From IMG/VR virus record IMGVR_UViG_2511231131_000010: a stretch of DNA of 46,425 nucleotides; one strand, 5' to 3'. This DNA is from a virus (lineage: Duplodnaviria; Heunggongvirae; Uroviricota; Caudoviricetes). The position numbers are program-made. How positions within the stretch are numbered: position 1 is the stretch's first letter; each line of letters starts with the position of its first letter. Below, piece by piece: positions 21,001-24,000 of this stretch.

Positions 21001-24000
21001 ATATTATTCAGTTGTTGCTCTGATATATTCATCGAGTAAATCCGGTAATTTATCCCCTGCCCGCGCACACTGATTTGCCCCCTTAGCAATAAGGGTTTTC
21101 AGATGGTCAAGATGGCGCGGTGTTAAATCAGGAAACTGTCGCTGCATGGATAAAGGGATGGAATCAAGCGTACTGGATAACGCCATTGCCAGCTTACTGA
21201 GGGCAAAAATACAGAACCCGGTGTCAATAAGTTTTCCTTTTGACACCTCATTTTTTAACTGCTGTGTAACAGCCTGTTCTGCTGTCAGTTCCCATCTGGC
21301 AATAAGCAATTTCTCCTCATAGTCGTCTTCGCTATCGCCATCAGGCACATCGTTTTTACTTCTCCTCAGATACGATATGTAAAAATCGCGCCAGGCATCC
21401 AGATCCAGTTGCCCTCGCTTATTCGATATCGGGGCACCCGGCAATTTCTGCAATCTGCGAAGCTGGCGATCGGTCAGACTTAAATGCCTGGCAACTTCAG
21501 TCTGCGTAGCCACTCCTCACCTCGCAAAAACTCTCACCTCACAATCACAACAAAACCGGTCATGTCCGGTTTACATGTCTGTTTTTTGTTCATGTCCGGT
21601 TCACAGAAGACCTGTTTTTATATTTTTCATATAGTTAACTTGCAGAGAAACCGGACATGGATCCCGGAAAATTTTCATAAATAGCGAAAACCCGCGAGGT
21701 CGCCGCCCCGTAACCTGTCGGATCGCCGGAAAGGACCCACGAAAATGATAATAATTATCATCTACATGAGGTTTATCACGACATGTGTGTACGCCATCAA
21801 ACCACGAGAAATAATCAATTATTACGCAGGTATCGTATTAATTGATCTGCATCAAATTAGCGTAAAAGCAACTTCAGATAATACAAATCAGCAACACTGA
21901 ATACGGGGCAACATTATGTCATCAAAGAACAGAACCCGCAGAACAACAACCCGCAACATCCGATTTCCAAACCAGATAATTGAACAAATTAACATCGCTC
22001 TTGACCTGAAAGGTTCAGGTAATTTTTCAGCGTGGGTTATTGAAGCCTGCAGAAGAAGATTAATTAATGAAAAATATTCTCAATTTGTACCCAACAAAGA
22101 CAAACACGACCAGAGCACCTGTTCAGACAGGTTTACTTAAACGACTTATATATGACACAAAAAGCGACCACTAAAGTCGCTTTTTCTTATGGTAACAGGC
22201 AATAACTCTCTCAGATATTTTTTAGCATTTTTTTGACCGCGCGTTTCCGGACGTATTCTGTTCTCCTGTCCCTTTATATCGTCGGAATACCCGCCGCTCT
22301 TCAAATCCCATTCCCAACTCAGAATGTAGTCTGTTGACCGCTTGTTTTATTTCGGTCAGGTTCACCGGTGAAACCGGAGTCCGGCGCGCCTTACGCAAAC
22401 ACTCTGCTCGTTTCTGTGCCGCCACTTTTCTTTTCTGGTCATCACTTAGCTGTACCATCACTTTTGCCCATCGTTCAGCTGCTCTCCGGTACAGTCCTTT
22501 TTTCTCCAGACATTCTGCCACGTGATCATGTAGCATAAGTGACCTCCGATTATCTACAGACTGCCATCCTGAATTTACCTTCCCTTAATGAAATAACAAT
22601 AAAAAACAAGCCACGCAAAAACAATAAAACAACACACAAAAAAAAACTAAATAATAAACAAAAATAATCACCTTATTTTATTATTTTTTGAGGGAGCAAT
22701 TACTGAACAAAAAACGCTGACTATATACTCAAAACCAAACAACTATTCTGCCAATCAGGTATCATGGCAACACACGGAATTACCGTGTTTTTGCCTTCTC
22801 TGCCCATACAATACGGGCATATACTTCATTCTCTATTGTAATATTTCTATCCATGTGCCCCACTCCATTTACCTGTAAATAATATTCAAAATATTTATCA
22901 CAGAAATCGTTTTTGGCCATGAACTGAGCACACTATAAAGTCCGGAACTGACTCTTTGTTAAATTACCTTAACGTTACCAGTAACACCTTCATAACAAAA
23001 CATCACGGTATACACTGGGTACGGATATATTCCTGTGCTCCTTCCAGTTGCTTCTGCATTGCCATCAGCCGTTCTCTGAGGATGAAATAATCCCGTTCAG
23101 CGGTGTCTGCCAGTCGGGGGCCGGTTGCATTATCCACGCCGGAGGTGCCGGTGGCTTCACGCACGGTACCGGAGCAGGTGGCGTTGATCCGCAGGCGCTT
23201 ACGACCAGCGGCAACATCAGCACGCAGAGTTTCATTTTCAGCTCTCGCATCGGCTAATTCCCTCGAGTATCTGGCATCAAGTGCAGCGACATCACGCTGG
23301 CGTATCTGCATATCAGTAATTGTCGCGTTCGCCAGCTCCAGCTCACTGGCTTTTTTATCGCGCTGCTCTTTGTAGATGATGGCGTGATCACGGTAATGAT
23401 TCAGCCCCAGACTAAGCGCACCACAGGCCACCAGCAGGACAATGATAACCACGCACAGAACACGGTTCATATCACCACCAACGGATTGCCCAGACCAGAA
23501 CAGCAATGGCCACAATACGAATGGCAAAAGCTGCCGCTCTTGTTAAATCCAGACTGGCTGGCGTCTCCACTTCAATGCCTTTCATAATGGACAACCTCAG
23601 AAAGAATCTTTTATACTTCCTCACAGGGAAAGTACCTCCCTACCCATAATTTCTCCCTTGCCTTACTCAAGGTCAGAAAACACAAAACCCCGCTTGCTGC
23701 CAACAAACGGGGTTTTTACTTTTATTCACTTAGGTTTTACCAGTTTTCAGGATTTCGTGTTATCCACCCGCGTTGGCCAACGTCATTTTTCAGGAAAATA
23801 TTCTGCTATCTGTCGATGTCCCAGCACGCCAGCGCGCTCTCCTGGTCACGCCGTGAGACCTGACCGTAGCAATTATTTGAACGGATACGGCAGTCTCTGC
23901 CACCGTCCTTAATCCACCAGCGAATCGCCTCACAGGCACCTTTTCGATCGCCTGCATTAATTCGTTTATAAAACGTCGACGGGAAGCACTTACCGGGGCC

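Follow-up and report, generated by a model that had tools for sequence, protein, structure and literature searches.

A gene occupies the gap between the endolysin and Rz spanin genes in a 46,425-nt stretch of DNA from a virus of the class Caudoviricetes (IMG/VR record IMGVR_UViG_2511231131_000010; we call this whole stretch the window). The gene is a 37-codon open reading frame (ORF) under purifying selection, which is already annotated but uncharacterised, and it is one of several interchangeable small membrane-protein genes (PHROGs 4493/1115/3246, 6632 and 4906) that fill this junction in lambdoid phages of the Shiga-toxin (Stx) type. Reading from its position and from precedents in other phages, we assign a probability of about 0.5 to its product being a late-expressed, membrane-active lysis accessory protein. 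The late genes of this lambdoid Escherichia coli prophage, lysis genes included, all lie on the minus strand, and the small gene is oriented with them. Its two forms, and a short frame that precedes it, are:

23472..23585, minus strand: small membrane-protein gene, short form of 37 residues from an ATG (annotated as WP_000675931.1, a PGAP/RefSeq hypothetical protein)
23472..23624, minus strand: the same gene, predicted long form of 50 residues from the GTG at 23624, MRKYKRFFLRLSIMKGIEVETPASLDLTRAAAFAIRIVAIAVLVWAIRWW (aligned with phrog_4493 from profile position 1)
23621..23647, minus strand: predicted leader mini-ORF of 8 codons at an ancestral ATG, MGREVLSL and stop (from reading the sequence and from comparison with 60-residue relatives)

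Diverged copies of the gene, retrieved via the protein databases, allowed the comparison of synonymous and non-synonymous changes that the original prediction had proposed as a check. Between the window and the relative L165 the ORF differs by 18.5 synonymous (Sd) and 5.5 non-synonymous (Nd) changes, with synonymous sites near saturation and a ratio of non-synonymous to synonymous change (dN/dS) of 0.04. Among diverged lineages the ratio is 0.03-0.09 in the ORF's own frame only, whereas in window-versus-relative comparisons the other two frames give values of about 1 or higher; in the hydrophobic part of the protein the amino-acid changes are swaps among I, V and L. An ORF that was unconserved or disrupted in relatives was to have counted against a gene, but all 103 loci that carry the motif upstream of it have the ORF intact, and frameshifted variants are restricted to a few rare database entries. 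The gap region is, moreover, 100% identical across hundreds of complete E. coli genomes and is present at a coverage of at least 80% in 668 of 5,426 of them (about 12%).

Over the full length of its profile the protein matches PHROG 4493 (function unknown; related PHROGs 1115 and 3246). None of the small proteins considered here, nor a 60-residue lipoprotein encoded next to one of them (see below), belongs to a family in Pfam, NCBIfam or PADLOC, and a profile search of 1.84 billion representative proteins gave no link to a described family. That search returned 28 relatives, 27 of which are tiny (20-77 residues), the exception being a 680-residue repeat protein that is a chance match. The peptide strings we sought in the supplements of the Sakai ribosome-profiling paper had no match there, and WP_000675931 was not mentioned in the literature we searched.

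The suggestion that the ORF encodes a membrane peptide held up well. Residues 30-48 of the long form, 19 residues in all, have a mean Kyte-Doolittle hydropathy of 2.10, above the usual membrane threshold, and AlphaFold models a single helix over residues 3-49 with a confidence score (pLDDT) of about 95 over the hydrophobic half, which together point to one C-terminal membrane helix. An Arg within the helix and a C-terminal [R/K]WW vary little or not at all (the window protein ends in RWW), and the N-terminus of the long form is basic and amphipathic, giving that form a net charge of +6.

The original prediction was right about the ORF but took only its short form as the product; it missed the likely longer form from the GTG, and also that the 37-residue frame corresponds to an annotated short form. 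The true product is probably the 50-residue form, because the frame is open from GTG 23624, the long form aligns with positions 1-54 of the 56 in the PHROG 4493 profile (1.4e-24, compared with 5.5e-16 and positions 14-54 for the 37-residue form), the N-terminus is conserved, and GTG and ATG replace each other at the start position. At the position of the long-form start 99 loci have GTG, two have ATG (in two separate lineages) and two have GAG, and in a parallel family a start occupies the same relative position as AAGGAG-5 nt-GTG or GGGAGG-5 nt-TTG. Distant members keep the basic N-terminal extension at the protein level, as YKRFFLRLSIM, YRKTFRLRISM, YHKIFRLRLSM or KQYKRIFLRLSIM, while the residues themselves vary. 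At the ancestral ATG of the leader mini-ORF, 60-residue relatives start with a good Shine-Dalgarno sequence, and compared with their family the window has ~23 extra nt, as a result of which the old ATG (23647) now opens a leader of only 8 codons, the TGA of which overlaps GTG 23624, and AGGGAGG (23641..23635) is placed, as predicted by folding, within a 7-bp hairpin.

The gene is closely coupled to Rz. The endolysin-Rz gap had been described as 278 bp; it is 335 nt (23471-23805), and the smaller figure arises only if Rz is started at a mechanically chosen TTG, 23527, rather than at ATG 23470, which we take as the start because both PGAP and Pfam back it. The short-form ATG is preceded at 9 nt by GAGG, as the earlier description of an ORF with a Shine-Dalgarno sequence has it; the ORF was also said to end exactly at the Rz ATG, and more precisely a single nucleotide separates its TGA stop (23474..23472) from that codon, so that the two adjoin without overlap. 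The Rz ribosome-binding site (GGTGGTGA) is made of the small gene's last codons. In every junction variant that we compared, the small ORF next to Rz terminates with ...GGTGGTGA or ...GGGGTGA at 1-8 nt from the Rz ATG; the classes thus all draw the ribosome-binding site of Rz from a small ORF's final codons.

The upstream hairpin and a candidate antisense RNA

Upstream of the small gene are a hairpin and, on the opposite strand, two predicted features:

23684..23716, both strands: GC-rich hairpin with T-runs on both strands (terminator scan and folding; core stem 23688-23712, extended by A/T pairs)
23588..23617, plus strand: predicted sigma-70 promoter, TGGACA, 18 nt, TATACT (10/12 consensus positions, 11.2 bits)
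23625..23720, plus strand: predicted antisense RNA of ~95 nt, ending at the hairpin plus TTTTTACTTTT (promoter/terminator geometry; folding z = -3.3)

The GC hairpin with T-runs that had been placed at 23685-23717 was confirmed, its stem lying at 23688-23712 with T-runs on both sides. It folds with -21.8 kcal/mol (z = -4.4) on the lysis-sense strand, where it is followed by UUUUGUGUUUUC, and with -14.2 kcal/mol (z = -3.2) on the other. On both strands of the window, then, a GC stem-loop is directly followed by a T/U-run, the arrangement of an intrinsic terminator, and judging from this structure the hairpin may terminate transcription in both directions. Every lineage has a GC hairpin 30-110 nt upstream of the ORF (~100 nt in the window), and the structure is kept with changed sequence in L137, L165, L171, L178, L179 and L180; in L137 a double change from U-G to A-U maintains the pairing of the sense strand. 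The T-run on the antisense side is present in all lineages, whereas that on the sense side is absent from L170-172, the first hairpin copy of L178, L179 and L180. In lambdoid phages, Q-modified RNA polymerase ignores intrinsic terminators. As the downstream late genes (Rz, terminase, heads, tails) are read through the hairpin, it must be overridden in lytic growth, presumably by Q antitermination.

The contents of the gap are as the original prediction described them, but it missed the candidate antisense promoter and the general variability of the site. With both strands of the whole window counted, just six sites are as strong as this predicted promoter (P about 0.04 for the region), which in nearly every lineage outscores every other site on the two strands. 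On the sense strand, the stretch from the hairpin to the ORF has no sigma-70-like site above background, the best scoring 6.4 bits. Both hexamers are invariant over the nine distinct 45-nt upstream sequences found among the 103 loci, although they include four synonymous sites and the proportion of synonymous differences (pS) in the adjacent ORF is about 0.65-0.7; spacer positions do change. More broadly, the 40 nt before the ATG hardly differ even between lineages in which synonymous sites of the ORF have reached saturation, L137 having three substitutions there (two synonymous and one conservative, Arg to Lys). In the parallel 'WKF' family, codons 3-5 of the long form carry a different but equally good antisense -10-like element, TAAAAT with TG before it. 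Transcription is predicted to start at the first base of the long-form start codon in the window type, the 60-residue type, both WKF types and L178, and the predicted RNA would be fully complementary to the long-form Shine-Dalgarno sequence and leader. Consensus folding of the predicted antisense RNAs gave the terminator hairpin only, with no convincing covariation elsewhere. From consensus scoring and conservation, we rate the existence of a ~95-nt cis-antisense RNA as slightly short of an even chance.

A variable junction and other settings of the module

The junction in which the window gene lies is mosaic and varies widely among relatives. Across 81 loci with this endolysin type and a measurable gap, the gap spans 297-1197 nt, in size classes of 297/298, 335/336, 426, 438, 486-489, 642, about 978-1013 and 1197 nt; it is never zero and the endolysin gene never adjoins Rz. 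In Qin of K-12 the same endolysin type overlaps Rz by 4 nt, gapless. The gaps contain one to four small membrane ORFs, or an antirepressor gene (ant), and their classes combine, with or without the latter, the following families:

Window type, 37/50 residues: PHROG 4493
60-residue relative: PHROG 1115
31-32-residue 'WKF' type: PHROG 6632 (the H-19B version also ends in IRWW)
43 residues: PHROG 4906 (ECs_1966 in Sakai)

The other small families are also under purifying selection, with ratios of 0.06, 0.11 and 0.42 in their most divergent pairs. In gaps that contain ant, a gene of 43-48 residues (family B) overlaps the ant stop and ends 8 nt before Rz, and there is no hairpin; an example is L175 5125-5271 (Sakai ECs_1966, with ECs_1965 as the antirepressor).

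Judged from the sequence contexts in which it occurs, the module is linked to its hairpin and not to one particular endolysin. In L165-169 it follows a cassette of two holins and an M15-peptidase endolysin that has no recognisable Rz/Rz1, and there the same TGGTGGTGAtATG junction leads into the 60-residue lipoprotein gene (PHROG 7528, function unknown). At L165 1331-2798, and likewise in L166-L169, this junction reads TGAtATG and the lipoprotein is predicted to be an outer-membrane one with the lipobox LVGC. In L180 the module stands after an R-like endolysin and before Rz, and in L170-172 it is downstream of the type II heat-labile (LT-II) enterotoxin genes. In the latter loci (L170-L172 787-1924) the LT-II A and B genes (PF01375, PF06453) directly follow a GH108 endolysin, the hairpin and small ORF lie ~450-600 nt past them, and the next lipoprotein gene is truncated. 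The array at L178 2423-3403, from a GC-rich metagenomic phage, follows a lambda-type major capsid gene and consists of three copies of a 48-nt GC hairpin alternating with five paralogous small membrane ORFs, of which two end in VRWW; one 'WRF...VRWW' peptide resembles the H-19B type.

Possible roles of the small protein

What might such a protein do? We favour a lysis accessory role because the gene holds the endolysin-spanin position in three unrelated cassette types, has no promoter of its own, is coupled to Rz or to a lipoprotein gene, and has precedents. P2 LysA is encoded between the P2 endolysin and spanin genes. Lcc6 of LambdaSo (Shewanella) is a 65-residue membrane protein required for pinholin/SAR-endolysin lysis, SAR standing for signal-arrest-release (bioRxiv 10.1101/2024.01.23.576932), and the Mu gp25 releasin is reported to act on a SAR endolysin (PMC9239132). 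Like the window protein, all three are small membrane proteins that come on top of holin, endolysin and spanin. Pfam, PHROG and profile searches found no sequence relation to any of them, and the window protein differs from them in its 37-50 residues, its single C-terminal helix, its coupling to Rz and its occurrence with non-SAR endolysins also. A further precedent is HokW of Sp5, a membrane toxin that aids release (PMC8621323).

Other lysis proteins offer partial likenesses. As in lambda S with its sdi stem-loop, two in-frame starts are separated by 13 codons, extra basic residues distinguish the longer form, and a stem-loop is predicted to occlude the upstream ribosome-binding site; unlike S, the window protein has one membrane helix and no match to a holin family. 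Membership of the holins or antiholins is not supported, as there is no holin match in Pfam or PHROG and the cassette already has an S21-type holin, nor is that of the two-component spanins, as the protein carries its membrane helix at the C-terminus and lacks both a periplasmic domain and a lipobox, and Rz/Rz1 are the next genes. With disruptin the window protein shares small size (<80 residues), cationic character and encoding in a lysis cassette, and the L165-type cassettes lack Rz/Rz1; phiKT gp28, however, is hydrophilic and without a membrane segment (bioRxiv 10.1101/515445), whereas the window protein has a hydrophobic helix and the window has spanins, so membership was rejected.

In the mechanism we propose, the gene would be transcribed only by Q-modified RNA polymerase arriving from the late promoter through the hairpin, and its 50-residue form would be translated in tandem with Rz. 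In a lysogen, the hairpin would stop stray sense transcription, while a constitutive antisense promoter would supply the ~95-nt RNA, which would pair with the long-form ribosome-binding site and start codon and so silence a potentially harmful membrane peptide until late transcription swamped it. Most speculatively, late insertion of the peptide into the inner membrane might tune the timing of lysis or the disruption of the envelope, together with the pinholin, SAR endolysin and spanin.

Several observations weigh against parts of this proposal. The family is very narrow, at 28 relatives in so large a protein set, and a scan of contigs from one genome per species found no true match to it. In L178 and L179, both metagenomic phages, the module lies after major capsid genes, which means that the gene does not belong strictly to lysis cassettes, and every cassette junction collects variable accessory DNA. 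The Shine-Dalgarno spacing of GTG 23624 is long, at 10 nt. With regard to the antisense RNA, pairing in the hairpin is stronger on the sense strand, which has G-U pairs where the antisense strand has A-C mismatches, and the conservation of the 40 nt before the ATG could alternatively reflect coding for the N-terminus together with the region where translation of the short form starts. At the gathering score, Rfam has nothing in the gap when the whole window is searched, and at a permissive E-value the gap gave only terminator-driven matches to rimP and RefA9 (E 0.5-0.9). Nor is any of the Hfq-bound orphan RNAs of Sakai in the R-Rz gap, although carriage of the module by Sakai was unchecked; the nearest Sakai Hfq peaks, EcOnc11/12, lie after Rz.

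The most substantial alternative concerns the hairpin rather than the peptide, and for this reason the weight that we give it is independent of the figures for a lysis role. The hairpin would work on the sense strand only, with no antisense RNA, as a terminator that insulates Rz and the late genes in a lysogen and/or as a stem-loop protecting an mRNA end (the 3' end of a processed endolysin mRNA or the 5' end of the downstream mRNA), and the 40 nt would be conserved only for the N-terminus and translation signals. We regard this as possible though on balance doubtful. The greater stability of the sense hairpin, which is followed by UUUUGUGUUUUC, argues for it, as do the G-U pairs and the L137 double change, which keep sense pairing where the antisense strand is mismatched, the conservation of the N-terminal extension at the protein level, and the nature of the three L137 substitutions. 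It accounts poorly for the lineages in which the sense T-run is missing while the antisense one is there, for hexamers that stay invariant at four synonymous sites while the spacer between them changes, and for the recurrence at codons 3-5 in the parallel family of a -10-like element of different sequence. The original proposal that the hairpin is an attenuator setting the spanin-to-endolysin ratio in lytic growth, with the small ORF mainly a leader that restores Rz expression, drew on a terminator-like structure between R and Rz and could appeal to the coupling of the ORF to Rz, whose ribosome-binding site it contains. We consider it highly unlikely: since Q-antiterminated late transcription must pass the hairpin to reach the terminase and structural genes beyond, the hairpin is a poor candidate for regulating Rz in this way, the T-run of distant relatives is on the opposite strand only, a mere leader would not need a peptide sequence under strong purifying selection, and the module is present where Rz is absent. 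That the frame is accidental or decaying, in DNA left as a scar of recombination, might be suggested by the mosaic, variable gap and the few frameshifted entries, but is effectively refuted by dN/dS values of 0.03-0.09 confined to one frame, with an ORF intact in 103/103 loci, identity across hundreds of complete genomes and profile-search homologues of the same architecture.

A different kind of alternative, which we think unlikely although less so than the last two, is that the gene is an autonomous element resembling a type I toxin-antitoxin system or a moron and acts in the lysogen, for example in prophage maintenance, phage exclusion or abortive infection; on this view the antisense RNA would serve as antitoxin to a membrane-toxic peptide, and the late operon would be no more than a permissive insertion site. 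As in hok/sok, ldr/rdl, ibs/sib, zor/orz and symE/symR, there is a hydrophobic peptide of under about 60 residues, and a convergent antisense RNA is predicted, over the 5' untranslated region and ribosome-binding site, from a conserved and correctly placed promoter-like site and a terminator. The likeness extends to a structured 5' region in which the ribosome-binding site lies in a hairpin behind a leader mini-ORF, to the tandem hairpin-ORF repeats of one relative (L178), which recall those of ldr and ibs, and to residence in prophages; the module also occurs outside lysis cassettes and near the LT-II toxin genes, and variable inserts are found at every cassette junction. Against this, the toxin promoter expected on the sense strand was not found (6.4 bits at best, versus 11.2 for the antisense site), any sense transcript begun further upstream would end at the window hairpin, the late operon tightly preserves the junction at which the small gene stops and Rz or the lipoprotein gene starts, and neither PADLOC defence models nor Rfam antitoxin RNAs matched; the gene shows no similarity to known toxin or antitoxin families. 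The hokW-sokW pair was considered as a counterpart here and set aside, since it is located elsewhere in Sp5 and provides an analogy only. Compared with the morons of lambdoid late operons (Juhala/Hendrix), the module is likewise present or absent among relatives, mosaic, situated at a late-gene junction and associated with a terminator, but the terminator precedes it instead of following it, and we found no promoter belonging to it. Small RNAs (sRNAs) are known from neighbouring junctions near PR', namely AgvB/AsxR and the Pas sRNAs (PMC4104026; bioRxiv 10.64898/2026.05.13.724894). The described sRNAs of enterohaemorrhagic E. coli (EHEC) prophages lie upstream of the holin gene or after Rz, and among those known from EHEC and enteropathogenic E. 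coli (EPEC) prophages none is in the R-Rz gap, AgvB/AsxR and PasA/C being upstream of the holin.

On a broader and quite improbable conjecture, hairpin-punctuated [R/K]WW tail-anchored peptides, each silenced by a cis-antisense RNA, would constitute an undescribed toxin-antitoxin-like timer or booster of the late operon, acting with Rz/Rz1 in Stx phages, and the L165-type peptide with its 60-residue lipoprotein, which stands where Rz would otherwise be, would be a new, minimal system for disrupting the outer membrane.

Lysis by Shiga-toxin phages releases the toxin, and the related small families occur in hundreds of Stx phage records. If the lysis accessory peptide alters the timing or efficiency of lysis, it would affect burst size and toxin release, and if the booster conjecture were true, it would influence when the host cells of Stx phages lyse and release toxin; the antisense RNA, if real, would be a new example of antisense control within a late operon. 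A hairpin followed by a small ORF ending in RWW offers a search rule for further modules. The lysis cassettes of Stx phages are usually described as holin, endolysin and spanin only, and a survey of them omits these small genes (PMC8136144). In the literature we searched, the family-wide pattern, the linkage to a hairpin, the coupling to Rz and the candidate antisense RNA seem to be undescribed.

The surrounding lysis cassette

The genes around the gap, and the remainder of the gap itself, are:

25233..25027, minus strand: holin, S21-type (PF04971, 1.9e-32)
23806..24339, minus strand: SAR-type endolysin, R21/rrrQ-like, 177 residues, the upstream border of the gap (PF00959, 7.6e-24; phrog_7, 1e-61)
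23003..23470, minus strand: Rz i-spanin (PF03245, 8e-49)
23250..23065, minus strand: Rz1 o-spanin, embedded in Rz (PF06085, 1.7e-21)
23717..23805, minus strand: non-coding spacer 3' of the endolysin stop (from alignments)

PGAP names the endolysin and its close copies lysozyme rrrQ. The 5' half of the spacer is variable, and its A-rich 3' end provides the T-run of the opposite strand. We considered whether the 5' portion of the gap is a coding remnant, as a short TTG-started frame is open there in relatives, and rejected this; the frame is hypervariable, and in the window a TAA interrupts it.

The interval from holin to endolysin contains, running against the late genes, a 104-residue ORF (24457-24771, plus strand; PHROG 1853, function unknown), which PGAP gives as a 90-residue hypothetical protein, WP_000138558.1. 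Its presence makes the holin-endolysin junction an insertion site as well; the same junction in Sakai Sp10 has a different gene, ECs_1963, on the same strand as the late genes. The window holin (25027-25233, minus strand) begins MEKITTG with no in-frame Met upstream, so that the dual-start (antiholin) motif seen in phage 21 S is missing. Directly upstream of it, at the esterase-holin junction, are two terminator-like hairpins (25289-25315 and 25360-25377, both minus strand), and this junction is the reported location of the PasA/PasC sRNAs in EPEC and EHEC prophages. A further terminator-like hairpin lies just downstream of Rz on the strand opposite to the late genes (22772-22788, plus strand); the equivalents of this site in Sakai Sp10 and Sp9 bear the Hfq-bound peaks EcOnc11 and EcOnc12. 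Elsewhere in the window, Rfam matches at the gathering score (27754-27944, 28024-28270 and 36777-36962, all minus strand) comprise the STnc100 sRNA, three tRNA genes, C4 antisense RNA and isrK, an RNA-rich content that is usual for lambdoid prophages of the Stx type.

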